A stretch of DNA of 40,000 bases from Candidatus Uabimicrobium amorphum. GTDB lineage: Bacteria; Planctomycetota; Uabimicrobiia; Uabimicrobiales; Uabimicrobiaceae. Below are positions 1-33,351 of the stretch, in pieces. Numbering within the stretch: position 1 is the first letter of the stretch; every line of letters begins with the position of its first letter. The notes beneath the pieces are model-generated. The model saw only the letters and a list, made by a program, of their open reading frames with translations. It ran no database searches and was not told where the DNA came from. The DNA lies in contig NZ_AP019860.1 of NCBI RefSeq assembly GCF_009002475.1, positions 7,769,547 to 7,809,546 on the forward strand, in the 5' to 3' direction. The position numbers were made by a program, and so were the translations under genes.

Positions 1-747
1 CAGCTCAGGCTTGGTAACTCCAATATCAAGTAACAGTTTTAAAGATGCAGATATTTCAAAATTTAATTCTTCTTGACCTATTTCGGCAAGGCGTCGATGG
101 TAGTATCCGTGTCCTCCTACCTCAACACCATCCTTATGCAAGCTAGAAATATCTTCTCGACTGAGATATAAATTCTGTGGTAAATCTATAGGAATCTGAC
201 TATCAAGTACTTGTTTCAAGTTTTGTAGTAGGATAATTTGCTCTTCTGCTGTCGCCATGTGCAATTTTTCTTTAAATTCTCCTTTAATCCACCATTGAAT
301 GTCTGTGTCTATTGCTGGTACTTGCATATCGACGTCAAGGAACTTTAAATGGATAGGGGAACGATTATTAGCGTAATGCAATATCATGTAGTAATGGTCT
401 ACGTATACAGGAAAATCAGCTTCTGCCGTATGTCCTGCTATTGGAAATATACAAATGGGAATTTGGAGATTTTTAGATAATGGCCAAACGACATCTTTAA
501 TCTCTTTGTAGCCATCATCAAATGTTAGCACGCAATATTTACCCTCCTCCTTTTGTTTTGATAGCTCAACAGCTTTTGTTAGCGAAGTAAAGGTATAACC
601 TTCTTTTATCAACCAATTTAGCTGTCTTTCAAAAACTTGAGGTTCAACGGCTGTCCCCCTCGCGAAATAGCATTTATTGTGTTTTGTTTTTTCACAGATT
701 CTGTGATACATTAAGATGGCTATATTTGGCACTTTTTCTCCATTCAC
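1..747 (-). CDS. Polysaccharide deacetylase (NodB/CE4-like), C-terminus cut by window edge
   Basis: Absent from the ORF track because the frame runs off the window start. My own reverse-strand translation gives VNGEKVPNIAILMYHRICEKTKHNKCYFARGTAVEPQVFERQLNWLIKEGYTFTSL...KYCVLTFDDGYKEIKDVVWPL...HGYYHRRL. The ILMYHRI and TFDDGY motifs are typical of NodB-homology deacetylases. Start is ambiguous: GTG 745-747 or ATG 709-711. It lies 8 nt downstream of the stop of the preceding ORF. Confidence 0.6.
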   Translation of the reverse strand, partial: MNGEKVPNIAILMYHRICEKTKHNKCYFARGTAVEPQVFERQLNWLIKEGYTFTSLTKAVELSKQKEEGKYCVLTFDDGYKEIKDVVWPLSKNLQIPICIFPIAGHTAEADFPVYVDHYYMILHYANNRSPIHLKFLDVDMQVPAIDTDIQWWIKGEFKEKLHMATAEEQIILLQNLKQVLDSQIPIDLPQNLYLSREDISSLHKDGVEVGGHGYYHRRLAEIGQEELNFEISASLKLLLDIGVTKPEL

Positions 748-755
748 AAATAAGA

Positions 756-1796
756 TTATGGACTTTCTATAATTGAAAAAATTTTACTATGTCTCTCTTC
801 TGATAGGTCAGCGAAGCCTATAAATTCATCATTTACAATGTCCCAACAGATAATACCCGTTTTTGTTTTACTCCATGGAGATACTTGCCAATCATATTGT
901 GGTTTTCGCCGTATTTCAGTTATGCCTACAAATAAATAGTTATCTTGGATCATAAGACCACGGCACCAACCATGATATGAAGTTTTTTCAAAAATATTTG
1001 TAAAGTACATCACATCATCTGTGACCGCGTTATTTTCTATTCTATAAGCTAAAACTCTCCCATCAACGCAGGTAATCCAGAATTTATCATTATAAATAAA
1101 TCCATCATGTGGTGGGGCAGGAGTGGTTATCATTTTGCTGAAGTCCAATATATTATAAATGCCACAAGCCGATAAACTAGTTACAAGAACTTGAGTTGGC
1201 AATATAGAGACATGGTTAATGTGAACGAAATCTCTAACTGGCTTTTGGCAAAAATTCTCCTTGTCACTTTGGTAGTAGTCTTTAGTAGGAGGAGCATCTA
1301 CTATGGGAGTATCTTGTTTTGTCCATCCTCTTTTTAAGAGTTTTGGCCAATCTTGGCGGGCAGGTGTTATGCCATGTAGCCTTTCTTTATTAAGCCATGA
1401 TGGTTGAAAGCAGTGGTTTCCTACAAAGTTTCCAGGTAAATCAAAGATATCAATACTCTCAACGCCTGTATTTACAACAAATATTTTTCCTTGGTTTACA
1501 GTTATATGATGCAAGTCATTCATACATGGTTGATGTAAAACTCCAGAGAGATCCCAGTGAGGTGGAGAAAAGCGAAATACTGCGCAAAAACCACATACTA
1601 GTAAGTCTGATTGTCCAGGTGTGCCGACCCAGGTGGCACCAGTAAAACCTTTACGAGAGACTAACAAATCTTCAGGTGGTGTAAATCGTATAATTTTTTC
1701 CACGTTGCTTCCGAAAACATCCACCTCATATACAAAACCTTCTCCTGACTCATCAAAGTATCCACCAGTCACCCATATTCTAGATTCTTTGCCCAT
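756..1796 (-). CDS. Conserved hypothetical protein, beta-propeller-like; function unknown
   Basis: 346-aa ORF packed between operon neighbours. Repeated strand-turn segments (KIFVVNTGVESIDIFD, DKFWITCVDGRVLAYRI, NYLFVGITE) suggest a propeller or lactonase-like fold. I suspect a DUF4915/TIGR03032-type family but cannot verify it. Confidence 0.5.
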   Translation of the reverse strand: MGKESRIWVTGGYFDESGEGFVYEVDVFGSNVEKIIRFTPPEDLLVSRKGFTGATWVGTPGQSDLLVCGFCAVFRFSPPHWDLSGVLHQPCMNDLHHITVNQGKIFVVNTGVESIDIFDLPGNFVGNHCFQPSWLNKERLHGITPARQDWPKLLKRGWTKQDTPIVDAPPTKDYYQSDKENFCQKPVRDFVHINHVSILPTQVLVTSLSACGIYNILDFSKMITTPAPPHDGFIYNDKFWITCVDGRVLAYRIENNAVTDDVMYFTNIFEKTSYHGWCRGLMIQDNYLFVGITEIRRKPQYDWQVSPWSKTKTGIICWDIVNDEFIGFADLSEERHSKIFSIIESP

Positions 1797-1832
1797 TTTG
1801 TATTCCTGAAAATTCTATCACTTGGTAGATGT

Positions 1833-2525
1833 TTAAGAAAATTTACTGACCTGGTTTTCTTCAAAAAGAACTCGAACATCGAATTGAAAATGTTTTTTTA
1901 TTATGTCAGAGGCTTTTTCTCTATCGATATTTGTAATGTCTTGTGGCTTATCACATTCACAAAAAAAGAGTAACGTATCATCACGCAAAAAAAGAAATTT
2001 ATCATCTACTACCTGCGAAAATCGCAATCCTGTACTAAAAGGATACTCAACACTTCCATCAAATCTGTTTTTGATATCATCCATTATCTGTTGTTCGTTT
2101 TTTGATTCAAACGGAATTTCTGTTGATAGACGCTCCTCTCCTCTTCTAGTTTGGTAAACTTTCAAAGAGTATGGTTTAATTTCTGATCTATAGGTAATTC
2201 CGTAGCAAGTGTATCTTACTTCATAATGCTTAGGAAACAACTTAATCGATGGCCAACCATTGCCTACATCAGCAAAATAAGTTTGCCCTTCAATGTTAAC
2301 TGCCACTAAGCGATGAATATTTTGGTTGTTTATCAAAGAAGAATGCAGTTTTGCCTCAATCCCTAAACTTTTTAATGTGTTAAGAAAGCTTAATGTTTTA
2401 TCTGAGCAAGTACCACCATAGATTAGTGTTTTTGGTGTTGTTTTTGATAATAGATATAGGTTATGGAAAGGCTCTGTTTTAAATTTGTTTAACATTAAGC
2501 TTTCCACGTAATTTATACTTGTCAT
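1833..2525 (-). CDS. Arylamine N-acetyltransferase (NAT)-like acyl/acetyl-transferase
   Basis: Cys-His-Asp triad contexts match the NAT fold: IYGGTC(40)SD, H(71)RLVAV, YFAD(86)VGNGWP. The His-to-Asp spacing is 15 residues, as in NATs. At 230 aa it is shorter than typical NATs. It overlaps the upstream gene's stop by 4 nt. Confidence 0.55.
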   Translation of the reverse strand: MTSINYVESLMLNKFKTEPFHNLYLLSKTTPKTLIYGGTCSDKTLSFLNTLKSLGIEAKLHSSLINNQNIHRLVAVNIEGQTYFADVGNGWPSIKLFPKHYEVRYTCYGITYRSEIKPYSLKVYQTRRGEERLSTEIPFESKNEQQIMDDIKNRFDGSVEYPFSTGLRFSQVVDDKFLFLRDDTLLFFCECDKPQDITNIDREKASDIIKKHFQFDVRVLFEENQVSKFS

Positions 2526-3970
2526 TTGTGTGTCCTACCACGAGATGCTATTGCATTGTTGAAAACAGGGTAAGAGTGGAAATAAATTGCATCTGAACCT
2601 ATATCAAAAAACCTTTGCCAGATTTCTTTAAGTACCTGCTTCTCTGTATCACTCTCTTTGGTCAGATGGCAAACTGTCAGAGCTCGTATTCCACTGCCAA
2701 CATCAAATGATATTTTTTTGCGACGAGTGATCCTCTTTGGCAGATCAGATTCAAAAGTTTGTCTCAGTATAAACTTGTTTTCCATCGTTCCATTTTCTAT
2801 ATGAAAAAAATCATCATATTTTAAGCTAGAAGCGAAATCATGTATTTTTTTGTCTAAGAATGGGCATCTATTTTCTATAGAATGTGCCATACAACATTGA
2901 TCTATACGACGTAACTCAGTAAAGCACATATCATTAATTAATTGCTGCCGAATATTGATCCAATCATCATCCTTTTTGAACATATGATACCCACAGAAAA
3001 GTTCATCAGCTCCCTCTCCAGACAAAACAACTTTTAGTTGGTCTTTATGGGCAGATTCAGCTAATAAATACGTACAAATACCATTACTTATGATAGATGG
3101 GTTATAGCTTTCGGTGGTGTAGACCACTTTGCAAATCAATTCTCTTAGCGTGTTCTTATGGGGAGGATCGATATATTTGACCTGAATGCCTAAATATTTT
3201 TGTAGCTCTACAATATAACTATAATCAATGGAGTTTTCTTTTGCTAATGCATAGTATATTACATCTTTCCGATGCTTTGAAACTATAGAAGCTACAATCG
3301 AACTATCAAGCCCACCACTTAGAAAGACTCCAAAAGGATCTGCTGGCAAACGTTTTATTACCGCATTTTGTACAAGGTTTTTTAGAGAAGTGGCTTTGTC
3401 TAATACATTGGTTTTATGGTTTACTTCCTGATAAACTGCCCCTGTAGAAAGGTCTATCCGACTTACTCCTTTAGGTAACATCTCAAAGCTATCCACGTTT
3501 GGTATAGCTTTCAATTCACTGGTCACGAAAATTTCAGTGCCTGATCTACCTAAAAATAAAGGTTTTTTACCGATGTAGTCTCGTATACAAAATAGTTTGT
3601 GGTCTTTTCGATTGTATATCAAGCCGGAGTAAAAGCCATCTAAAACAGAAATGATTTCTACTCCAAGTTTATCGAACAAAGGTAAAATAACATTTGTATC
3701 GCATGCTCCTTTAATATCTATTTCATATTCCTCTCTTAAAGACATATGGTTGTATATTTCGCCATTAACAACAGCTATATGATCTTTGTAGTAATATGGC
3801 TGACTCCCTAGAGTACTTTTATCATTGATAGCCAGGCGATTAAAAGCTATAGCCAAATTTTCTTGATGAAAAAATTTTGTGTCGTCAGGTCCGCGGTGCT
3901 TAATCTTATGTGTGCTTTCTGATAAACGAGAGTCTGCATGTGGACCGAAGTATAAAACAATTCCGCACAT
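2522..3970 (-). CDS. Asparagine synthetase B-like glutamine-dependent amidotransferase
   Basis: MCGIV N-terminal nucleophile Cys of class II amidotransferases, HRGPDD, PP-loop FLSGGLDSS, SGEGADELFCGY. AAGGAG lies 8 nt upstream of the ATG at 3968-3970, so I trim 12 codons from the track ORF (2522..4006). Confidence 0.85.
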   Translation of the reverse strand: MCGIVLYFGPHADSRLSESTHKIKHRGPDDTKFFHQENLAIAFNRLAINDKSTLGSQPYYYKDHIAVVNGEIYNHMSLREEYEIDIKGACDTNVILPLFDKLGVEIISVLDGFYSGLIYNRKDHKLFCIRDYIGKKPLFLGRSGTEIFVTSELKAIPNVDSFEMLPKGVSRIDLSTGAVYQEVNHKTNVLDKATSLKNLVQNAVIKRLPADPFGVFLSGGLDSSIVASIVSKHRKDVIYYALAKENSIDYSYIVELQKYLGIQVKYIDPPHKNTLRELICKVVYTTESYNPSIISNGICTYLLAESAHKDQLKVVLSGEGADELFCGYHMFKKDDDWINIRQQLINDMCFTELRRIDQCCMAHSIENRCPFLDKKIHDFASSLKYDDFFHIENGTMENKFILRQTFESDLPKRITRRKKISFDVGSGIRALTVCHLTKESDTEKQVLKEIWQRFFDIGSDAIYFHSYPVFNNAIASRGRTHK

Positions 3971-3974
3971 GGAA

Positions 3975-4391
3975 TTAACTCCTTTCCACAAGGTATGCAT
4001 TAGCACACCATTCTAAAAACATTGCGAGCGCATATATACAAGGTTCCGTATATTGGGAATTAATCCATTTGTTAAACTCTCTGTGATCATGTACACCACA
4101 ATTACCATACTCTTTTATAGTCCATAGATGTGCCATGATTACTTTTGGAATGGTCGACTTTCTTTCGATAATTTTTAATTGGGCATTCAACTTATAATGT
4201 AAAATCTCGTCTTTATTTAACAGTCCTTCATAAATACAAATTTCTCCGCACAAACGTTCAAGGAGTTTTCGGCAAAGAGTAAGGCTATAGTCTGGTTCAG
4301 AATCTTTATGGATTAAAATTTTATAAACATCGTTTTGTAACCACAGAGGTAAAGAATCAAGAGTTACACTTTTGAAAATGTTGTAAATCAT
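3975..4391 (-). CDS. DUF4145-like small helical protein
   Basis: 138-aa ORF. LCRKLLERLCGEI and WTIKEYGNCGVHD resemble the R-x-x-LE and GN-x-x-x-H signatures of DUF4145. ATGA start/stop overlap with the upstream gene at 4388-4391. Confidence 0.45.
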   Translation of the reverse strand: MIYNIFKSVTLDSLPLWLQNDVYKILIHKDSEPDYSLTLCRKLLERLCGEICIYEGLLNKDEILHYKLNAQLKIIERKSTIPKVIMAHLWTIKEYGNCGVHDHREFNKWINSQYTEPCIYALAMFLEWCANAYLVERS

Positions 4392-5590
4392 ATCTTTTCT
4401 CCTTGCTGAAGATTACTACGAACTTCCATCAGAATTTCGCCCAGCATATTCTTGCCTAACCCGTCACCGCCATCTCCCCAATAACTATCATTCTCTGTGT
4501 GTTCGATGATATCTGCTTTACCTGTTGCGATTAGTTTGGCTTTTAGATCTGGATGCTGAGTAAATTTAGCAAAAATGGCTTCGCGCATAACATCATTTTT
4601 TACATTTTCCCAGTCATCTCTTTTCGGATTGTTTTTCTTGCGACCCATTTTTGATGCTTTTACTGGGGATGGAGCCATACGCAACTCCTCTTCGTAAGGA
4701 GTTCCTGCATATTTTTGTGCTTGGTAGTAATGCTCAACTGTCATCCATATTTTGTTTTTGAGATAAACAGGGTGTTTAGAAAAATTAGAGAAGCATCCAT
4801 AAGGCTGTTCTATCTGATAGAATAGTATTCTGCTGGAATGTCTTTCCTTTGGATAAAAATTTTTGCGGATATTGAAACTATTAGCGCGGCTTATACCATC
4901 CAAAAAAAATGTGTTTATGCCCTTTTCTTCAGCAATATTAATCGCGGAACTCAGACTTAGTATAAAATCCTTAGAAGTAAACCCCCTAAGATCATTTTTT
5001 GGCTTGTATCTGGGGTTGTATTTACACAATAAATTCCAAAATTTGCACAGTACGTCGAAGTCAGCATTCAAATTATGTGCAAATTCAAAAAAATCATTTA
5101 GGAAAGTTATTTGCATAGCAGAAGCAATGTTATATACATACATACCTAGCTCTGCTGTTTCAAAAGAAGTTTTCAAAAAGAAATGTTTCAAATCTTTACT
5201 CAAAAGGTTCGTAACTTCTTTTATAGAGTTGCATTCACCCCCAATGAGATAGGTACGGTGTTGATTCTCTGTCTCACAGTATCTAAACAATACAACAATT
5301 TGTTTTTTGTATTTTTCTGCAAAGTAGCGTGCAGTTCCTGGTGGAAGTATAGTCTGAATGATGTTAATTCTTGCTTGTGACGTTTTTATTATGGATTCAA
5401 TAGTAGAAGTGTTTATTTCTCCACCTTCCATTTCGCCAGCAGAAACACATATAAAACAAAAATGTGTTTTGAGCGCCGCATCCATGTTTTGAGAGTATTT
5501 AACGATATTTGAATCGTAAATAATTGCAGAAGGAAACATTTCATGAATAGCTTTTCCTCTGCCATCATATCCAATAATTGAGATACTCAT
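4388..5590 (-). CDS. Two-domain protein: degenerate UDP-sugar dehydrogenase-like N-terminus fused to a NADAR (YbiA/COG3236/DUF1768) N-glycosidase domain
   Basis: aa ~254-400 are NADAR: FYQIEQPYGCFSNFSKHPV, WMTVEHYYQAQKY, DSYWGDGGDGLGKNMLGEILMEVR. aa 1-240 resemble UDP-glucose/GDP-mannose dehydrogenase: ETAELGMYVYNIASAMQITFLNDFFEFAHNLNADFDVL matches the central-domain helix. The glycine loop is degenerate (IIGYDGRGKA) and there is no Cys where the catalytic Cys is expected (RGFTSKD). AGGAGG SD precedes the ATG at 5590. Confidence 0.75.
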   Translation of the reverse strand: MSISIIGYDGRGKAIHEMFPSAIIYDSNIVKYSQNMDAALKTHFCFICVSAGEMEGGEINTSTIESIIKTSQARINIIQTILPPGTARYFAEKYKKQIVVLFRYCETENQHRTYLIGGECNSIKEVTNLLSKDLKHFFLKTSFETAELGMYVYNIASAMQITFLNDFFEFAHNLNADFDVLCKFWNLLCKYNPRYKPKNDLRGFTSKDFILSLSSAINIAEEKGINTFFLDGISRANSFNIRKNFYPKERHSSRILFYQIEQPYGCFSNFSKHPVYLKNKIWMTVEHYYQAQKYAGTPYEEELRMAPSPVKASKMGRKKNNPKRDDWENVKNDVMREAIFAKFTQHPDLKAKLIATGKADIIEHTENDSYWGDGGDGLGKNMLGEILMEVRSNLQQGEKI

Positions 5591-5647
5591 TTTGGCCTCC
5601 TGATTGTGTTGCTAAAATGCTAGCGTATTAGAAAATACGCCAGGCCT

Positions 5648-8446
5648 TTAATCTAAGCAAAAAAAGTGGTTAAGTTTGTCTCTTTTGGTGTACAGATAAT
5701 CGCGATTTTCTTTACGGATTTTAGGTTGAGTATTTACAGGCTCAACTACCAGACCCGCTTCTCTAAGACAAGATATCTTTCGAGGGTTATTGGTTATGAG
5801 TCTGACACTCTTGATGTTTAAATCCAAAAGAATATCTACAACTTTCTGATAGTCTCTAACATCCTGTTTTAGCTGAAGTTTTTCAAAGGCTTCAACTGTG
5901 TCCATTTTTTGCTTTTGCATTAAAGATATTGCTTTGATTTTGTTAGAAAGTCCCTGTCCTCTCCCCTCCTGATGGAGGTGAAAAATAAGTCCTTCCTGTT
6001 GAGAAGCAATGCGTTGCATTGCCTCTTCAAGTTGATCAGCGCAATCACAATCATTTGATTTAAATAGTTCAGAGGCCATGCAAGAGGAATGTATTCGTAC
6101 TAGAGGTATACTACTAAACTGATGTACATCTCCATAACTAACAAGGCGAATCTCTTCATCTCCGGTGTCATACATACGAAATTCTCCATAGTTAGTAGGG
6201 AGATAACACCAGTTGTTTAAATATAGGTCTCTTTTAGGAGTATAGTTTTCTATTTGAGGTTTTAATGAATCTATAAATTTTTTTATTTCATCTTTTGATA
6301 GGGTTTTTACTCTTGATTCTATTGCTTCAAACGTAGTTTCGCTGTACCACTGCGATAACTGTTCTACAAACTCTTCAAGCTCACCTGTTTGGTCGTAGTT
6401 CTTTATATACTTTTGTATACCGCGAGCTCGAAAATAGTTTATCTTTAAAGATAATAGGCGCTTTTTTTGGTATTCCTGCACTTTATCACAGATAACATTC
6501 TTTGTTTCTTCATGAAATTCAAAGTTGTGTACCGCATGTCCTTTTAAAATCTCTTTTAAGGCGGCGTAAAGAGAAGATCCTTGTATTTCCCCAACAACTT
6601 TTTGAATATTAAGCTGTGGCTTTGCTTCAATCTTTCTTTTATGGATAACAGGAAAATGAACATGCTTAATTGTGAGGCCATGGTAGTAACGATTGATAAC
6701 TGCCCAAATCATATCTGAGCGTCTTACTTCTTTTCCAGATACTTCGGCAACTGCATTCGGTGCTTGTAAAGCCAAGGGGTTCAAAATGAAAGTATTACCG
6801 CCTCTATTCACAGACTCTTTTGCTTCGTTTATTGGATCAGTAGGTAAGTCTACCAATATCGGCCTTGTAAGCGGTTCGCCAGCTAAAAGATAAGGAGCAC
6901 GTTCTAGTAAGCGCGTTCTTGCTTCTTTGACCGTTTCTCCCTCGTAGATAGGCGTTAACCAGTACGGTGTTTCCAGATGTCCTGTATGTAGTCGCGATAA
7001 ATCGTAGTAATAATCTGGATATACCAGGCGAGTTTGTCTATTTTCATTACTACGATCAGGTAAAACATCATCAGGTTTTAAATTATCTAGCCATTGTAAA
7101 TTATGGATTAAATCTACAAGTTGTATTCGAGATCCGTTCAATGGAGGATTAGGAGATGCATATTCAAAAGAGCCTAACAAAACATCGACTTTCCATCTGC
7201 GAAAACTTGGCAGCCAGGGAAGATATAGTCTTGCGCGGAAATCAAGCCTCATATCATCATCAAGTATCCAACCAATAGAATTTTGTTTTTTGTCCATAAA
7301 GCGATGAATATATCGCTGTAAAATAGTCCTTGCTTTTCCAATACCTAGCAATGATTTTTCTCTTTGAAAACCTTTGCCAAATATTCCACGTGAATTATCT
7401 CTGATTTGTTGACTAAGGCTGATAAAATGGCAATTTATCCCATCCATTTTTGTAAGTTCCAGTAAGTTTTGTCCATCTCCACCATTTTCCATCACAAGTA
7501 CATCAAGGTCTAACAAGAAAGATTCTTCTCTCAAACAACGCAAATCCTCTAGTAAAGGCTTTAACTGTTGTGCATTGTTACTTATAACAGCAACAATTAA
7601 ATGGAATGGCTCTGGATCTCTGGGAAAATGTATCTTGGCAGTAGGGATTGATGCTATCTGTTTTGGAACAAAACCAAAAAGAGTTTTACTCCTTTCCAGA
7701 AACATTTGCTTTTGCTCATTACTCATTTGGCTTTGATATTTTTGCCAAAATGCCTGGAGCCCTTCTAGCTTTGAAGGACTTCCATATGAAGAAAGGCGTA
7801 ATCTATCAGAACAACAATAGTGATGGACGGTATGTCTCTCCGTTGATACTGTTTTCACACCCATTTGTGCAAGGCGGATATATAGATCTCTATCAGTACA
7901 ACTTGCTAAATTTTCATCGAAGAGCCCTGCTTCAAGGATTGCAGACAAGCGTACAAATGTATTTGATCCTTGAATTCCAGGGTTTGTGACTAATAGTTCA
8001 TCAATATTTAAAACATTGGGAATGCTATCATTGTAGGTTTTACTACTATATCGAGTAATCCCTCCTATTACTACATCGTAGTTTGGAGTGTGTTTTAGAC
8101 ATGTTTCTAAATGGCATGGATGCCATTCATCATCATCATCGAGGATAGCAATAAATGTATTTTCGGGATTTTTAAAATTATCTGTTACAAATACCAGACC
8201 AGTATTCCACGCTCCCGAAGCGCCTTTAGCTCTTTTGTTTTTAAGAAAAATAAATTTTACGCCTGGTGGTATTCTGTCTGTTAGAATCTCTTCCAGTTTG
8301 GAATTATTCTTTGAATCATCAATGACAACGATATAATCAGGTAATCGGTTTTGATTTAGTACTGATGGTAACGAACGATCAAGCAATAAGTCATCCCGAT
8401 CACAAGTTGCAATTAAAACAACAACTTGGGTTGAAGTTGAATTCAT
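5648..8446 (-). CDS. Tri-domain protein: family-2 glycosyltransferase + second DxD (GT-A-like) region + C-terminal GTP cyclohydrolase II (RibA-like) domain
   Basis: aa 8-230 are GT2: VVVLIATCDRDD, SVLNQ, IVVIDDS, AILDDDDEW. aa ~285-470 form a second DxD region: LIVAVISNN, GWILDDDMRLD. aa ~744-932 (nt ~5651-6217) are GCH II: LPTNYGEFRMY, VRIHSSCMASELFKSNDCDCADQL (Zn Cys triad), HQEGRGQGLSNKIKA, DTVEAF, VRLITNNPRK. Confidence 0.8.
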   Translation of the reverse strand: MNSTSTQVVVLIATCDRDDLLLDRSLPSVLNQNRLPDYIVVIDDSKNNSKLEEILTDRIPPGVKFIFLKNKRAKGASGAWNTGLVFVTDNFKNPENTFIAILDDDDEWHPCHLETCLKHTPNYDVVIGGITRYSSKTYNDSIPNVLNIDELLVTNPGIQGSNTFVRLSAILEAGLFDENLASCTDRDLYIRLAQMGVKTVSTERHTVHHYCCSDRLRLSSYGSPSKLEGLQAFWQKYQSQMSNEQKQMFLERSKTLFGFVPKQIASIPTAKIHFPRDPEPFHLIVAVISNNAQQLKPLLEDLRCLREESFLLDLDVLVMENGGDGQNLLELTKMDGINCHFISLSQQIRDNSRGIFGKGFQREKSLLGIGKARTILQRYIHRFMDKKQNSIGWILDDDMRLDFRARLYLPWLPSFRRWKVDVLLGSFEYASPNPPLNGSRIQLVDLIHNLQWLDNLKPDDVLPDRSNENRQTRLVYPDYYYDLSRLHTGHLETPYWLTPIYEGETVKEARTRLLERAPYLLAGEPLTRPILVDLPTDPINEAKESVNRGGNTFILNPLALQAPNAVAEVSGKEVRRSDMIWAVINRYYHGLTIKHVHFPVIHKRKIEAKPQLNIQKVVGEIQGSSLYAALKEILKGHAVHNFEFHEETKNVICDKVQEYQKKRLLSLKINYFRARGIQKYIKNYDQTGELEEFVEQLSQWYSETTFEAIESRVKTLSKDEIKKFIDSLKPQIENYTPKRDLYLNNWCYLPTNYGEFRMYDTGDEEIRLVSYGDVHQFSSIPLVRIHSSCMASELFKSNDCDCADQLEEAMQRIASQQEGLIFHLHQEGRGQGLSNKIKAISLMQKQKMDTVEAFEKLQLKQDVRDYQKVVDILLDLNIKSVRLITNNPRKISCLREAGLVVEPVNTQPKIRKENRDYLYTKRDKLNHFFCLD

Positions 8447-8531
8447 GTGCCCCTCCAGAAATCAATTTTGAACCATGGTAACCCGAATTGCTAACTGGAT
8501 TAGCAACTTAACACGGACCAAGTTTCAGGGG
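8447..8531 (-). promoter_or_regulatory. Structured 5' leader, copy A (riboswitch-like, class not recognised), immediately upstream of the GT2/GCH-II gene
   Basis: RNA sense is the minus strand. Perfect 7-bp hairpin UUGCUAA-UCCAG-UUAGCAA (8488-8506). Loop UCCAG is complementary to CUGGA (8454-8458), which overlaps the SD GGAGG (8452-8456). Upstream CCCCUGAAA (8523-8531) can pair with UUUC..GGGG around the SD. It shares the flanks UUGGUCCGUG and UUCGG with copy B. Confidence 0.45.
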
Positions 8532-8560
8532 TTATATTTTATGGAATTGTAAAGTGAGGA

Positions 8561-8584
8561 TTAGTTTTGCGATTTGCTTTTCAT
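8561..8584 (-). CDS. Possible 7-codon leader mini-ORF (MKSKSQN*) behind copy B
   Basis: ATG at 8582-8584 lies 7 nt after GGAGG. The sequence catgggtgaccctccaga mirrors the real gene start catgtgcccctccaga. It may be only a relic of the duplication. Confidence 0.2.
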   Translation of the reverse strand: MKSKSQN

Positions 8585-8680
8585 GGGTGACCCTCCAGAT
8601 TAAATATGGGTTTATGATGAGCAAATGGAGAACCGAACAGCTAATAATCTGGATTAGCTGCTTATCACGGACCAATTGCT
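8585..8680 (-). promoter_or_regulatory. Structured 5' leader, copy B (tandem duplicate of copy A)
   Basis: Perfect 8-bp hairpin CAGCUAAU-CCAGAUU-AUUAGCUG (8638-8660). Relative to copy A the stem has compensatory changes (UUGC/GCAA versus CAGC/GCUG). The loop segment UCCAGAU is complementary to AUCUGGA (8594-8600), which overlaps a second SD GGAGG (8592-8596). Conserved flanks: UUGGUCCGUG (8666-8675) and UUCGG. Confidence 0.4.
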
Positions 8681-8775
8681 ATGAATTTTTTAGTATTATT
8701 TTATGATGAATAAATCAGAAAGAAATTGCAAGAAGTATTTTTAAAGATCTTAAATTTATTTAAAATAACCATTAT

Positions 8776-9222
8776 ATGTCTTTGAGTACAAAAAATAGCT
8801 TTGGAGAATTAAAAATGGAAGAAAAAAATCTACAAGTTACAAGCAACGTAGGACTTTACTATGTTTGCTACAAGTTGTCATTACAAGGTTGGAATGCTAT
8901 GCCTACAGCAAGAAATGCTAAAGGAGTCGATATCATTGCTTATAACTCTGATTGCTCAAAAATGATAAGCATACAGGTTAAAACCCTTAGCAAACGTAAT
9001 GCTGTCCCCTTGGGAAGAGATCTTGGCAAAGTGATGGGAAATTATTGGATTATTGTAAATGAAATAGATAAAGAACCAAAGACTTTTGTCCTAATTCCTG
9101 AAGAAGTTAAAAAATTAGCAGAAAAAAGGGAGAAAGAGGGGCAAGTATCATACTGGTTACAGGTGAAATCGTACTCTAATGAAGAGTATTTCGAAAAATG
9201 GGATAGAATAGGAGAGATTTAG
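8776..9222 (+). CDS. Small PD-(D/E)XK-like hypothetical protein
   Basis: GVDIIAY...ISIQVKT matches a D...(E/Q)xK nuclease-fold core pattern. The likelier start is ATG 8815, with GGAG at 8803-8806 eight nt upstream. It is the only plus-strand gene between two minus-strand units. Confidence 0.4.
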   Translation: MSLSTKNSFGELKMEEKNLQVTSNVGLYYVCYKLSLQGWNAMPTARNAKGVDIIAYNSDCSKMISIQVKTLSKRNAVPLGRDLGKVMGNYWIIVNEIDKEPKTFVLIPEEVKKLAEKREKEGQVSYWLQVKSYSNEEYFEKWDRIGEI

Positions 9223-9704
9223 TAAACGAACTCTTCCAAGTTTGTCCCAGATTTTGATAACTAAAATTTTCATCCTAAATGTCTCCATGATTTAGCTACT
9301 GTAACCTTTTAAAGGTTTGGCAATTTTGAGTTTTGTCGTAAATAACCATACTCATGAGATATCTCAAAAACAACTGTTAATCCTTTCGATATTAGATACA
9401 GGAAAAAAAATTTAAACATTTTTTTGCAATGCAACCAACTCTTTTTTTGCAACTAATTTTTTTGTACATAAAATTTGTATTGTTTTGGACACCTAAGATA
9501 TTTTTATCACACCAATATGGTATTGTCATTCTTTTTGGTATACTTCTATATCTGAGTTATTTTGGAAAAGTACTTCACATTCTCGCCACTTCTATTGCAA
9601 TAGAGCAATACATCTTTTCTCATAAAAGGTTCACAAAAAGATGCTAATAAATATCTCGACCAAGAACAATACTATTTGAAATCTAAATAAAAAGTTTTGA
9701 TTTC

Positions 9705-10478
9705 TTATCCACTCTCCACCATTGCATATGCTGAATGATTGTGTATGCTTTCAAAATTTTCAGATTCGACCCGATACCAAAGTATACGGGGGTCTTGATT
9801 TAGTAAGACGGCTGCATTTCGGACTAAATCTTCAACAAAAACAGGTTTATCATACGCTTTCTCAGTAACATATTTTTCATCTTCGCGTTTTAGTAATGTG
9901 TAAAGTGGAGAACTTGCTGAACTTTCAGCAATCTCTATTAGTTCCTCAATCCAAACAAAATCGGAATACTTTACTTGAATTGTAACTATCGCCCTTTGGT
10001 TATGTGCGCCATATTTGCTAATTTCTTTTGAGCAAGGGCATAGTGTTGTTACTGGAGTCTTTACTTGCAAGATATTGTTATATTGCTGATCTTGTTTACT
10101 ATAGCTTGCGATAAACGAACAATTGTAATCTAAGAGGCTCTTACGTTTAGAAACAGGAGCGATTTTGCTGATAAAGTAAGCAAAATCTATTTCAACATGC
10201 GCACAATCAGAATTGAGTTGGTCTGTCATTTTTCCTAAAAGTTGGTTTATATTTCTTAAGGTAACCTCTCCACGATATTCATTTAGTATTTCAACAAAGC
10301 GAGACATATGAGTACCTTTGAAATGATGAGGGAGATCTACATACATCGATATATTGGCAATGGTAGATTGGTACTCATTATTTTTGTCTAGCACTTCAAT
10401 AGGATAACGAAGATCTTTTACGCCTACTTTTTTAATAGGAATTTTTCGATTATCATGGCTATTTTGAACATCTCTCAT
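9705..10478 (-). CDS. folE2: GTP cyclohydrolase IB (FolE2 type)
   Basis: DNRKIPIKKVGVKDLRYPI, DLPHHFKGTHMSRF, TTLCPCSKEISKYGAHNQR are diagnostic FolE2/MptA-family motifs. AAGGAG SD precedes the ATG. Confidence 0.85.
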   Translation of the reverse strand: MRDVQNSHDNRKIPIKKVGVKDLRYPIEVLDKNNEYQSTIANISMYVDLPHHFKGTHMSRFVEILNEYRGEVTLRNINQLLGKMTDQLNSDCAHVEIDFAYFISKIAPVSKRKSLLDYNCSFIASYSKQDQQYNNILQVKTPVTTLCPCSKEISKYGAHNQRAIVTIQVKYSDFVWIEELIEIAESSASSPLYTLLKREDEKYVTEKAYDKPVFVEDLVRNAAVLLNQDPRILWYRVESENFESIHNHSAYAMVESG

Positions 10479-30407: not shown

Positions 30408-32621
30408 TTATTGCGTTGCTTGCTTAAATTCCTGGAAAAATACATGGGTATTGTGGAATCCTCTACGACGGTTGCGGTTATTTCCACGGAAAATGGCAAC
30501 TTCTATACCATTTTTTTCGCATATCGAATTATTTGTCGTTTTCCATGGGCAGTCCCTTAATAGTTCCTCATATAAACGCTCGTGCTTTTCTCTGTTGTCT
30601 CCGACAAATTGATCATACTCCAGAACATACTTTAATGTCTCTTCGAGAGATAGTGATCCTTGGTCAAAATTCCTCAATGCTTTCAGTGCTGCTTTTTCTA
30701 ATTTAACAAATTCTTGTAAACACCCACGTTCTTGTTCTAACATCTTTTTTATTCTAGGATTACCGATCTTTGCTTGAGGTACTCTAATCGCACTATATCT
30801 TTTATCGTAAGTAGACCAAAAGTTGTCACGTGCACTTAACCAAGCGCGCCTTAACTGCGATGCGCTATCACAACTGTAAACTCCAAGGTTGATAAAATTT
30901 GAAATAGCGTCCAGGCGTCCTATCCCAAATAAATGTATTCGAGTTTCTGGCTTTCTTATTTTATCAATAGAGGTTAATATTTCAATAATTGTTTCTGTTT
31001 GACTACGGACTAAACTACCCAGAGCAATATAACTATAGCCTAGTTGTTGATATTCCTCGAACATCTTAGTGTAGGAATCAGCATCCCATCCTTGACAAGC
31101 AGCAATAGGTTTAAAGTTGTATTTTTTTTGTTTGTATAAATTTATAAACTCTTTGCCATGGTCAAGTGTAATTTGCCACCTTCTCTTTGCTTCTGAAAAA
31201 TCAAACTCTGTTTTTTGATAAGTACAAAGTCGATTATCGAACAAATCAGAAGATTTTGGAGGAGATTTTACTACACGATACTTTTTATCTTTTGAAATAG
31301 ATTCGAATTTATCTTTTGAGATAGGTTCATAATTACCATTTTTATTCTCAACCCAATATGTTTTTCTTTGGCATACGCTTGGAACAATCAAATGATCAAT
31401 GGTAACTCCATAATTAAAATCTAATCTTTCATAATAATCAATAATTTCCTCTGTTGTATAAGGTGGATTATACTCATTTAGGTAACCAAAAGCGCCACAA
31501 TCTCCCATCACTGGAACTTCTTTTGGACATCGAAGATATGCATGAATACCTAAAGATTCAACCAGTTGTTTCTTTTTTTTACTTTCTTCAATAGTCACTT
31601 TTGAAACTAATATGCCATCGTAATTGTATTGTTTCATCAATTCATGTGAATAATAGTCATCACGATAAGAATCATGTTGCAGGCCAAAAAGTTCTGAGTA
31701 GTGAAAATCATTAATGAAATCATAACGTGGATCTACACGATCATCCCATTCTGGTATAAAATAGAGCATTTTTGCGTCTTTTCTTGGAGTGTAAGCAATT
31801 TCTACTCGTTTTGGTGGTTTGTAATCCGTAGGTAACCCTAAACGTAACTCAAATGGGCATTTTTCAGACAATTTATATCCTTTTGGCAAGTTACCCAAGT
31901 CTTTATCCTTCTTATGTTGAGAATTGTTTGCTTTTCTCATCGTATTTAAAATAGTGACTATTTCTTTGGGTTGTTTTTTCAATGTATTTAAAATGTTTGT
32001 TTTTTGACATACATGCTGGGCAAATCTTTTAAAGATTTCTCCTTTTAAGCCAACCAAACCACAATGAAAATCTTTAGCCTCTTGAATACTTGTTGGATAA
32101 ATTGTTCCATTGGAGCCGTTAAGCTGTTTTTCTTGTGAACAGAAAAAAATTAATGGTATAGAAAACTGTTCATTTTTTTCAATTTGTAAAGACCTTAAAT
32201 ATTTTTTCCCCAGTAATACAATACCTAAATCGTATTTTCCTAACACAGAACGAAAATCTTTTGGTATTTTTAGTAATTTTGACCACTCATCAATTTCTTT
32301 GGCTTTCATAGTATCGAAAGTACATTCATAGGGTACAATTTCTTTATTACTTCCTATAAAACCATAGCCAGCTGAAACAATCCATAGATCTACATTAGCT
32401 TGTTTTTCCCTTAATTTTTTTATCCCCTTCATTAATCGTATGTGCTGCTCTCCTGTATACATATTCTCAGCAGTACATTTATAATTATCTAGCTTTTCAG
32501 TTTTTGATTTTAGCAGTTCTGGTTGTTTAAAATCTTCTTGCACGAGCTGGTTATCGGGTTTCGATGCTTTTTTTCCTGTGCACGAAGTAATCACTAGTAA
32601 TTTGGGTAAGTCTTTTTGCAT
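30408..32621 (-). CDS. Second DpdA-like transglycosylase paralogue with an N-terminal YaaA(DUF328)/DUF6884-like domain
   Basis: aa ~285-737 are collinear with the other DpdA: PVMGDCGAFGY, GVTIDH, IHLFGIG, SCDSAS, RYSAIRVPQ, GIEVAIFRGNNRNRRRGFHN. aa 1-250 carry LLVITSCTGKK and IVSAGYGFIGSNKEIVPYE. It sits directly upstream of dpdE. Confidence 0.7.
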   Translation of the reverse strand: MQKDLPKLLVITSCTGKKASKPDNQLVQEDFKQPELLKSKTEKLDNYKCTAENMYTGEQHIRLMKGIKKLREKQANVDLWIVSAGYGFIGSNKEIVPYECTFDTMKAKEIDEWSKLLKIPKDFRSVLGKYDLGIVLLGKKYLRSLQIEKNEQFSIPLIFFCSQEKQLNGSNGTIYPTSIQEAKDFHCGLVGLKGEIFKRFAQHVCQKTNILNTLKKQPKEIVTILNTMRKANNSQHKKDKDLGNLPKGYKLSEKCPFELRLGLPTDYKPPKRVEIAYTPRKDAKMLYFIPEWDDRVDPRYDFINDFHYSELFGLQHDSYRDDYYSHELMKQYNYDGILVSKVTIEESKKKKQLVESLGIHAYLRCPKEVPVMGDCGAFGYLNEYNPPYTTEEIIDYYERLDFNYGVTIDHLIVPSVCQRKTYWVENKNGNYEPISKDKFESISKDKKYRVVKSPPKSSDLFDNRLCTYQKTEFDFSEAKRRWQITLDHGKEFINLYKQKKYNFKPIAACQGWDADSYTKMFEEYQQLGYSYIALGSLVRSQTETIIEILTSIDKIRKPETRIHLFGIGRLDAISNFINLGVYSCDSASQLRRAWLSARDNFWSTYDKRYSAIRVPQAKIGNPRIKKMLEQERGCLQEFVKLEKAALKALRNFDQGSLSLEETLKYVLEYDQFVGDNREKHERLYEELLRDCPWKTTNNSICEKNGIEVAIFRGNNRNRRRGFHNTHVFFQEFKQATQ

Positions 32622-32643: not shown

Positions 32644-33351
32644 TTATTTTATCGATATCTTAAAAGGGTTATAGTTTACTTTAGAGTCGTATTGGTCAAC
32701 GCCTTCTTTTCTTTTTAGAAAGTTTACTGCCATGTATGTAAAAGGCGTTACGATAATTTCATATAAACACTTAAATATCCAGGCCGAAATCATAGCACTT
32801 ATTAAGATGTTTTTAGGCAGAATACCAATGTATGCAATGCTTATGAAACAGATTGTATCAACACCTTCTCCAAACAATGTCGAGATTACAGTTCTGAGCC
32901 ATAAGTGTCTACCATCACTCCATACTTTCATTTTTGACATAATAGTACTATTAACTATTTCTCCTAACCAATAACCAACCAAAGATCCAAGCACTATCCG
33001 AGGTATAAATCCATGGATTATGGCAAATTGATCTTGGTAAGACCAATTATGAGCTGGCGGTAAAATAACTGCTATAGTAAGAAATGAAACCATAAACACA
33101 TTAGACAGCAAACCTAACCAAATTAATCTTCTAGTTCGTTTATAACCATATACTTCAGTGAGTACATCTCCAATAACATAGGAGATCGGAAAAATTAAAA
33201 TGCCAGCGCTAAAAATAGCACTTCCAAGACTAAATAATTTTACAGCAGCAATATTTGAAACTAAGAGGGTAACTATAAAAGCTATACCAACTATGTCCAA
33301 ATGCTTTGGATGCCATTCGTCTTCGGAAGTTATTTTTTTTACCTCGTTCAT
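32644..33351 (-). CDS. yhhQ: YhhQ/DUF165 (VUT family) 7-deazaguanine (queuosine precursor) transporter
   Basis: Polytopic membrane protein with VSNIAAVKLF, IFPISYVIGDVLTEVYGYKRTRRLIWLG, RIVLGSLVGYWLGEIVNS, STLFGEGVDTICFISIAY. AGGAG SD. Confidence 0.85.
   Translation of the reverse strand: MNEVKKITSEDEWHPKHLDIVGIAFIVTLLVSNIAAVKLFSLGSAIFSAGILIFPISYVIGDVLTEVYGYKRTRRLIWLGLLSNVFMVSFLTIAVILPPAHNWSYQDQFAIIHGFIPRIVLGSLVGYWLGEIVNSTIMSKMKVWSDGRHLWLRTVISTLFGEGVDTICFISIAYIGILPKNILISAMISAWIFKCLYEIIVTPFTYMAVNFLKRKEGVDQYDSKVNYNPFKISIK

Follow-up and report, generated by a model that had tools for sequence, protein, structure and literature searches.

A tandemly duplicated stem-loop with complementarity to the ribosome-binding site in the leader of a GT2/GTP cyclohydrolase II operon of Candidatus Uabimicrobium amorphum

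The leader of an operon in Candidatus Uabimicrobium amorphum, whose first gene encodes a fusion of a GT2 glycosyltransferase and GTP cyclohydrolase II, contains a structured element that is present twice in tandem. We studied this element in a 40,000-nt stretch of contig NZ_AP019860.1 (the window; all positions given below are those of the window unless a locus is named). Both copies lie on the minus strand, which is the sense strand of the fusion gene, and in both of them a stem-loop whose pairing has been kept by compensatory change is followed by a ribosome-binding block to which parts of the same leader are complementary. We consider the chances to be about even that the element is a lineage-specific, tandemly duplicated, cis-acting leader that controls translation. 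A first-pass annotation of this DNA had proposed a riboswitch-like element in tandem here; all of its statements about the sequence could be located on the minus strand, but the riboswitch reading fared less well, as detailed below.

The element occupies an intergenic gap of 368 nt between a divergently oriented gene for a 135-residue protein (8815–9222, plus strand) and the 932-residue open reading frame (ORF) of the fusion protein (5648–8446, minus strand), the first of six genes in its operon. Two homologous units, which start 154 nt apart, are found in this gap; we call the upstream one copy B and the downstream one copy A. The similarity between them exceeds chance. A 15-mer, TTGGTCCGTGWTAAG, occurs exactly twice in the 40 kb (8675–8661 and 8521–8507), and a local alignment of the cores (8675–8625 vs. 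8521–8475) has 39 identities in 47 positions and a score of 43, whereas shuffled cores scored 17.2 ± 2.2, with a maximum of 26. The order of parts is also common to both: the loop AAUCCAG, then UUCGG, and then the ribosome-binding block UCUGGAGGGNCAC. This block, identical at 12 of 13 positions, is found at 8599–8587 in copy B (UCUGGAGGGUCAC) and at 8459–8447 in copy A (UCUGGAGGGGCAC; 8444–8459 with the start codon included). In copy A it directly abuts the AUG (8446–8444) of the 932-residue ORF. In copy B, the AUG (8584–8582) follows three bases past the block and opens a 7-codon ORF, MKSKSQN plus a stop codon (8561–8584), which is probably a vestige of the duplication. The idea that the duplication reaches into the coding sequence was discarded: MKSKSQN was compared with MNSTSTQ, and there was no significant DNA similarity past the AUG.

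At the upstream edge of each unit stands the same 8-mer, CATAAAAT (8698–8705 for copy B, 8536–8543 for copy A), located 9–17 nt 5′ of the hairpin. Judging from its sequence, this box is a possible −10 promoter element, and a counterpart (TATAAAAT) is present at the locus of the nearest ortholog (L001). A promoter scan returned only weak candidates, none of them within 8447–8700. The duplicated unit of about 154 nt would be read as the box, the stem-loop, a linker, the ribosome-binding block, and an AUG. Three other features of the gap should be mentioned. A third short minus-strand repeat, AUUUNNUCAUCAUAAA, is found upstream of copy B (8689–8715) and in the linker of copy B (8600–8626),; the two 27-nt occurrences are 74% identical, and the CAUCAUAAA/−10-like motif is part of the repeat. 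A sigma-54 promoter was considered for TTGGTCCGTG.TAAGC and rejected on inspection, as copy B fits the GG-N10-GC spacing and copy A does not. Finally, there is a mechanically called 47-residue ORF with a TTG start (8532–8675, minus strand), which crosses copy B and is read in the TTGGTCCGTG frame. As the region is conserved in the manner of a hairpin, this ORF is unlikely to be a gene.

Each copy, folded singly, adopts the same interrupted stem-loop of about 60 nt. From the outside inward, the common helix order is a 5-bp helix (P0), a U·U mismatch, P1a (UGG(U)/(A)CCA), a 3′ bulge, P1b, a 5′ bulge (UGWUA), P2 with 9–10 bp, and the apical loop. P0 lengthens the helix beyond what had been described in the first-pass annotation. 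In copy B (8620–8680), these parts are AGCAA/UUGCU, UGG/CCA, CCG/CGG, the bulge UGAUA, and AGCAGCUAA(U)/(A)UUAGCUGUU, capped by a loop that contains UCCAGAUUA; the stem initially noted for this copy, CAGCUAAU/AUUAGCUG, is present as stated. The minimum free energy (MFE) of copy B is −19.7 kcal/mol (z = −3.5), and none of 500 shuffled sequences was equally stable. Copy A (8470–8526) consists of GAAAC/GGUUC, in which four of the five positions pair and the fifth is an A·G mismatch, followed by UGGU/ACCA, CCG/CGG, the bulge UGUUA, and P2 AGUUGCUAA/UUAGCAAUU with the loop UCCAG; its inner stem, UUGCUAA/UUAGCAA, is likewise the one originally reported. With an MFE of −15.5 kcal/mol, it is modestly more stable than shuffled sequences (z = −1.8).

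An alignment of the two copies contains 21 base pairs, six of which have changed on both sides and yet still pair (four in P0 and two in P2). The two in P2 are the compensatory changes that had been noted before, and both are real. Altogether, 95% of the cells in this alignment are paired, a level attained by 9 of 500 shuffles; when the partner columns were slid out of register, only 21–51% were paired. RNAalifold independently yielded an identical consensus structure. When four random substitutions in P2 were simulated, all nine pairs survived in 0.8% of the trials. The shuffle test on P2 alone (106 of 500) is uninformative with two sequences. These statistics, derived from two paralogs, demonstrate a conserved hairpin and not an aptamer. 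A G·U pair is retained in both copies (columns 20/44). Resemblances to a K-turn, a sarcin-ricin motif, a T-loop, and domain IV of the signal recognition particle RNA were dismissed on inspection, and Rfam gave no match either.

Divergence is spread very unequally over the parts of the two copies. Of the 10 positions in P0, 9 differ, compared with 8 of 47 in the remainder of the hairpin and 1 of 13 in the ribosome-binding block. Almost no change is seen in P1a, P1b, the bulge (a single substitution), upper P2, the loop core, UUCGG, CCAU, or the ribosome-binding block. The linkers between the hairpin and the block, by contrast, are saturated with change; they measure 25 nt in copy B and 15 nt in copy A and could not be aligned. 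That the core is near-invariant while P0 and the linkers have diverged argues for a sequence-specific constraint on the core and the ribosome-binding block, beyond a merely recent duplication. The preservation of the bulge UGWUA, upper P2, and the loop in particular suggests a trans-acting factor that reads these bases.

Both leaders contain segments that are complementary to the Shine-Dalgarno (SD) sequence and its flanks. The loop of copy B can pair with the SD flank over 9 nt (UCCAGAUUA:UAAUCUGGA, −12.1 kcal/mol), where 7 nt had been counted previously; complementarity of at least 7 nt is reached by about 1% of random loops. It is the UAA preceding the copy B ribosome-binding block that stretches the match to nine, and the last bases of the complementary stretch fall within the P2 stem. 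The corresponding match in copy A, UCCAG:CUGGA, covers 5 nt (−6.8 kcal/mol). An H-type pseudoknot in copy A would, from its geometry, have zero linker bases unless the top pairs of P2 opened.

A second set of pairings involves the SD itself. The 3′ strand of P1 in copy B is an anti-SD sequence: it can form a 9-bp duplex (GGUUCUCCA:UGGAGGGUC, −10.0 kcal/mol) that includes UCUCCA:UGGAGG. UCUCCA in copy B can pair with either of two partners, the 5′ UGG of P1a or the SD UGGAGG, just as the first-pass annotation had proposed. UUGCU can likewise pair with AGCAA of P0 or with AGCAAAU in codons 3–4 of the 7-codon ORF; the complement of the latter, AUUUGCU, is also the 3′ strand of P0, an inverted repeat that appears in the MFE fold. 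In copy A, the equivalent strand is weak as an anti-SD (−5.5 kcal/mol), and a C-run just 5′ of the hairpin, CCCCU (8527–8531), would serve instead; as had been claimed, it is predicted to pair across the SD (CCCCU:AGGGG, −9.7 kcal/mol) with a probability of 0.83. Partition-function folding predicts, for either copy, that the SD GGG is base-paired (its probability of being unpaired is 0.01–0.14) and that CUGGA stays mostly free for the loop. The one bulge base that varies and the one that varies 3′ of the SD could also pair with each other in both copies (GUGA:UCAC in B, GUGU:GCAC in A), although this amounts to one event only. The leader thus has the structural features of one that sequesters the SD, i.e., a conserved fold and segments complementary to the SD and start region, and both copies appear to hold the ingredients of a switchable ribosome-binding site.

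These observations suggest how the leader might work. It would hold the ribosome-binding site closed through three kinds of contact: the invariant apical loop UCCAG would pair with the invariant block UCUGGAGGGNCAC, the P1 3′ strand of copy B (UCUCCA) would also pair with that block, and C-runs (CCCCU in A, ACCC in B) would cover the SD GGG. The site would open when the full hairpin, P0 plus P1, occupies the anti-SD strand. A trans-acting factor may read the bulge, upper P2, and the loop. The analysis establishes the repeat, its preserved pairing, and the complementarities; we infer that the element is part of the mRNA and that it affects translation, and the existence of a trans factor is likewise inferred. 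No terminator-like site, i.e., a GC-rich hairpin with a U-run, was found in 8300–9800, which makes translational control likelier than transcription attenuation.

Several points weigh against a selected switch of this kind. The entire comparison rests on two paralogs found in a single genome. Where compensatory changes lie side by side in an inverted repeat, one template-switch mutation can produce them, with no selection for pairing (PMC8794818). As a whole, the leaders fold with unexceptional z-scores (−0.5 to −2.4). The 5-nt SD match of copy A is equaled by about 10% of random loops, and an AU-rich leader such as this offers many chance complementarities of 4–5 nt. Moreover, the two copies draw their anti-SD partners from non-equivalent places, which means that certain pairings may be incidental or over-read.

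We searched widely for relatives of the element. Rfam 15 (4227 families) was applied at gathering thresholds to the whole window and at E ≤ 10 to 8350–8800. The former cmscan run gave no Rfam match, and the latter gave four noise matches to unrelated families only. No cmscan match to preQ1-I, preQ1-II, or preQ1-III was obtained; the covariance models of ZTP, THF-I, THF-II (folE), purine, NMT1, and the other curated riboswitch classes were unmatched as well. Five homologous loci also lacked Rfam matches.

Pattern searches led to the same outcome. A strict pattern, GGTCCGTGNTAAGN{5,12}TCCAGN{5,14}TTCGG, had two chance matches, both in Bacteroidales and without a hairpin, among 185,579 species genomes, and it had no matches in the viral contigs of IMG/VR; a version extended by TTGG had none in the JGI metagenomes. 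A relaxed pattern that left P2 and the loop free, TTGGTCCGTGNTAAGN{15,31}TTCGG, had 14 metagenomic matches and 1 viral match, all attributable to chance: the 15 scored at most 25 bits with a covariance model (R1) of the element, none had a P2 hairpin, and most were in stop-free frames. The genome scan did not return the source locus and is uninformative on further copies within the source genome. No further copies of the motif were found in the 40-kb window or in the corresponding locus of the NCBI assembly (L008), which is identical across the leader. BLASTN of the leader against plasmids and phages gave AT-rich noise only, and a megablast of window bases 1–25000 against plasmids gave no match.

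At the protein level, searches with the full-length sequence and with its N-terminal 200 residues revealed no relative above 63% identity. Eight loci were obtained by this route, and the motif was absent from every one. Two short cluster representatives, P0123 (47 residues) and P0125 (42 residues), were judged by eye not to be fragments of proteins from the window. Model R1 detected nothing upstream of seven homologous operons; its highest score on loci L001–L007 and L024–L026 was 14.4 bits, vs. 71–79 bits for the two true copies. Covariation was seen only between the two paralogous copies, and conservation of an aptamer across species was not found.

The nearest ortholog, L001, is informative in this respect. 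Its protein is 63% identical to the fusion protein and its operon has the identical six-gene order; the contig ends 142 nt upstream of the gene. The annotated ATG at 143 is likely wrong (L001:143–160): the start codon is probably the GTG at 155, which is preceded by GGAGAG, and the N-terminus that results from it, MNTSQIIALIATCDR, aligns with MNSTSTQVVVLIATCDR of the window protein. The L001 leader shares with that of the window an ATAAAAT(T)ATAACC box and a C/U-rich run, and it also has UGGACC...GUCCAUUUG...AACCCA...UGGAG. Its UGGAC/GUCCA corresponds to P1a with one swapped pair, and in the centroid structure its UCCAUUU is complementary to AAAUGGA at the L001 SD. The bulge, a stable P2, and the UCCAG loop, however, are missing from L001, and its leader is no more stable than shuffled sequences (z = −0.1 to +0.6). 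The retention of the outer helix and of the anti-SD and SD sequences without the core suggests that the anti-SD logic predates the hairpin core and that the putative aptamer is the least conserved part.

Turnover of the leader is fast in this operon family, with at least four unrelated leader sequences. Homologous GT2–GTP cyclohydrolase II–NADAR genes on other metagenomic contigs have long leaders of their own, which are unrelated to the window motif and are better conserved than the proteins. The leaders at L006:285–420 and L007:2865–3000 are 91% identical over about 190 nt, with about 60 nt unchanged, vs. 77% amino acid identity; one hairpin in them shows a compensatory C-G to U-A change. 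Those at L002:180–270 and L005:140–230 are 83% identical vs. 75% amino acid identity. Neither pair matches Rfam, and both are candidate structured RNAs. Upstream of another homologous operon, L026 carries a direct repeat of about 45 nt (GCCATAAATTTTCGGG.TCG.ATTT.CT.AAAA; 2375–2425 and 2595–2645) and three tandem TTTTGTGCAA units (2672–2702); from their sequence, these look like protein-binding repeats.

Does the element sense a metabolite? In such a riboswitch, the bulge, P2, and the loop, together with the loop:SD pseudoknot, would constitute an aptamer for a GTP-derived pyrimidine or 7-deazapurine that gates the ribosome-binding site. The invariance of the unpaired bulge UGWUA and the loop alongside a covarying outer helix, the P1/anti-SD/SD logic of copy B, the covarying position that links the bulge to the base after the SD, and the placement of a biosynthetic operon beside FolE2 and Dpd genes all accord with this idea. 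Riboswitch aptamers, however, usually outlast the proteins under their control. Here, Rfam offers no match even at E ≤ 10, neither the strict nor the relaxed patterns retrieved a homolog from species genomes, JGI metagenomes, or IMG/VR, R1 is blank upstream of the homologous operons, and the 63%-identity ortholog has none of the putative aptamer core. The element is also a single rod-like hairpin with no multi-helix junction, and the operon is not linked to Dpd genes in the retrieved flanks of five other loci. We thus regard a metabolite riboswitch, which the first-pass annotation had advanced, as improbable; the comparison with other genomes, which that annotation had treated as the deciding test, gave a negative result. 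"Tandem riboswitch" is also too generous a term: two homologous units do exist, but the upstream one controls only a 7-codon ORF. The 7-deazaguanine ligand that had been suggested was based solely on the adjoining Dpd genes; Dpd, TGT, and FolE2 genes are absent from the retrieved flanks of the homologous operons at those five loci, and the idea is accordingly weak. A narrower version posits an orphan riboswitch class, confined to the Uabimicrobium lineage, that uses the invariant bulge and the loop:SD pseudoknot to sense a compound of the GT2/GTP cyclohydrolase II/NADAR pathway, be it an intermediate or a product. A diaminopyrimidinone, whether free or glycosylated, would be one candidate ligand, and a 7-deazapurine supplied by the neighboring Dpd system another. 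We rate this version as improbable, too; if it were true, the unrelated, highly conserved leaders of the homologous operons would be further classes for the same signal.

The strongest competitor, though still an unlikely one, is a passive tandem duplication of a promoter-proximal region, whose hairpin would be a 5′-terminal stabilizer or an RNase processing site and whose complementarities would be incidental. With a −10-like CATAAAAT box 9–17 nt upstream, each hairpin could begin its own transcript; the upstream copy drives only the 7-codon ORF; the loop match of copy A is weak (p about 0.1); and leaders turn over quickly, with at least four unrelated ones in the operon family. Such a duplication does not readily account for the conservation of the ribosome-binding block beyond the SD (UCU, CAC) despite saturated linkers, or for the 9-nt loop match and the 9-bp anti-SD match of copy B, and the sequence invariance of the bulge and loop exceeds the needs of a stabilizing hairpin. 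An explanation at the level of DNA, i.e., a transcription-factor operator (inverted repeat GCTAA...TTAGC) or a palindromic repeat of the Uabimicrobium genome resembling repetitive extragenic palindromes or miniature inverted-repeat transposable elements, seems very improbable to us. An imperfect palindrome would likewise show "compensatory" changes, and our search for copies in the source genome was confined to the 40-kb window and L008; within these, there were no extra copies. Yet the half-sites of one copy are spaced 4 bp differently from those of the other, the bulges differ by 1 nt, the conserved G·U pair would be an A·C mismatch on the opposite strand, both copies have the same orientation and are tied to the same ribosome-binding block, and the divergent neighbor encodes a weakly Mrr_cat-like nuclease and not a DNA-binding regulator. 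The retained G·U pair and the indels in the loop and bulge fit a hairpin in the sense-strand RNA better than a DNA operator. Least probable of all is an RNA thermometer, in which temperature by itself would melt the imperfect anti-SD:SD and loop:SD pairings, without any ligand or protein. The SD is indeed sequestered by short imperfect helices that include G·U pairs (−5 to −12 kcal/mol), the architecture is rod-like, and the element shows no deep conservation, which thermometers typically lack. A thermometer, however, would not need invariant bulge and loop sequences; the context has no heat-shock or virulence genes, neither a ROSE nor a fourU signature is present, and Rfam gave no match.

Taken together, the evidence supports a real, selected RNA stem-loop that is coupled to the ribosome-binding site and was duplicated with its promoter-proximal region. 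As to how a translational control leader of this type might be operated, we consider a metabolite less likely than an RNA-binding protein or a simple kinetic or thermal mechanism: the fast turnover of the core, the single rod-like hairpin, the lack of a family, and the island-like operon make a protein or purely structural mechanism likelier than a metabolite aptamer.

As a structured leader that would occlude the SD, the element belongs to a known kind, seen here in a single genome. It is a compact 5′-leader element, as are preQ1-II, preQ1-III, SAM-II/SAM-V, and the NAD+-II/pnuC motif; in common with these, its hairpin loop is complementary to the SD flank, and the 3′ strand of its P1 may serve as an anti-SD. 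Unlike those pseudoknot riboswitches, it has neither an Rfam match nor a phylogenetic distribution, its core is missing from the nearest ortholog, its ligand is only hypothetical, and its pseudoknot partner is 35–45 nt away instead of adjoining the hairpin. With the THF-II/folE motif, nhaA-I, and NMT1/xanthine it shares a single interrupted hairpin, invariant bulge bases, and a nearby ribosome-binding site, and the GTP cyclohydrolase context loosely recalls the folE motif; the sequences are nevertheless unrelated, with no Rfam match at E ≤ 10, and the local FolE2 gene is in a separate transcription unit. A sequence-specific bulged hairpin near or paired with the ribosome-binding site is also characteristic of ribosomal-protein leaders, the MS2 coat-protein/replicase operator, and the T4 RegA and gene 32 sites. 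These protein-bound operators are lineage-restricted and fast-evolving, as is the Uabimicrobium element, for which, unlike them, no candidate binding protein was identified; the small neighboring gene is nuclease-like. Finally, two homologous elements in series before one operon, 154 nt apart, bring to mind the glycine and tandem TPP or preQ1 aptamers. In contrast to those aptamers, each copy comes with a separate SD and AUG, perhaps also with a separate −10 box, and the upstream copy fronts a 7-codon ORF; this arrangement points to a duplicated promoter-leader unit rather than to cooperating aptamers.

Downstream of the fusion gene, the operon encodes a NADAR N-glycosidase ("riboflavin intermediates N-glycosidase"), a DUF4145 protein, an AsnB-like amidotransferase, an N-acetyltransferase_2-like protein, and a DUF4915-like protein. 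With GTP cyclohydrolase II, an N-glycosidase, and a glycosyltransferase all present, the product could, speculatively, be a modified aminopyrimidine, possibly a vicine-like one. In our literature searches, no paper joined NADAR, GTP cyclohydrolase II, and a glycosyltransferase, and full-text searches found none in which a riboswitch was linked to Uabimicrobium, to the GT2/GTP cyclohydrolase II operon, or to Dpd systems. The gene set (GT2, GTP cyclohydrolase II, NADAR, AsnB-like, and N-acetyltransferase_2-like) recurs: it is found at 756–8446 of the window (minus strand) and at L001, L002, L007, L024, and L026, with variation in fusions and gene order, and it adjoins an HNH nuclease, a toxin-antitoxin gene, a transposase, or a sigma-54 activator.

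Across the leader from this operon are the FolE2 gene, which belongs to a transcription unit separate from that of the fusion gene, and a Dpd-type 7-deazaguanine DNA-modification cluster. The latter (9705–34380, FolE2 included) comprises DpdB, a 764-residue TGT+DndB fusion, DpdK, several DEAD/SNF2 helicases, and an AAA ATPase, as well as a second TGT-like protein fused to DUF6884 (30408–32621) and a YhhQ-type queuosine-precursor transporter (32644–33351). No preQ1 riboswitch was detected anywhere in the window. The product of the divergent 135-residue gene resembles a PD-(D/E)XK Mrr_cat-like nuclease (GVDIIA...IQVKT). Its match to Pfam Mrr_cat_2 (E = 0.004) is weak and under the family cut-off, and it is nuclease-like rather than regulator-like. 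A 148-residue version of this ORF, starting at 8776, was absent from the protein collection.

At present, the element is a single-genome candidate that neither opens nor settles a general question. The finding does flag an uncharacterized, horizontally mobile operon whose chemistry plausibly yields modified aminopyrimidines, and whose upstream sequences are, in several lineages, better conserved than its proteins. Our literature searches found no regulatory RNA for Candidatus Uabimicrobium amorphum. If the leader does control translation, it would provide a first handle on post-transcriptional regulation in this prey-engulfing planctomycete.

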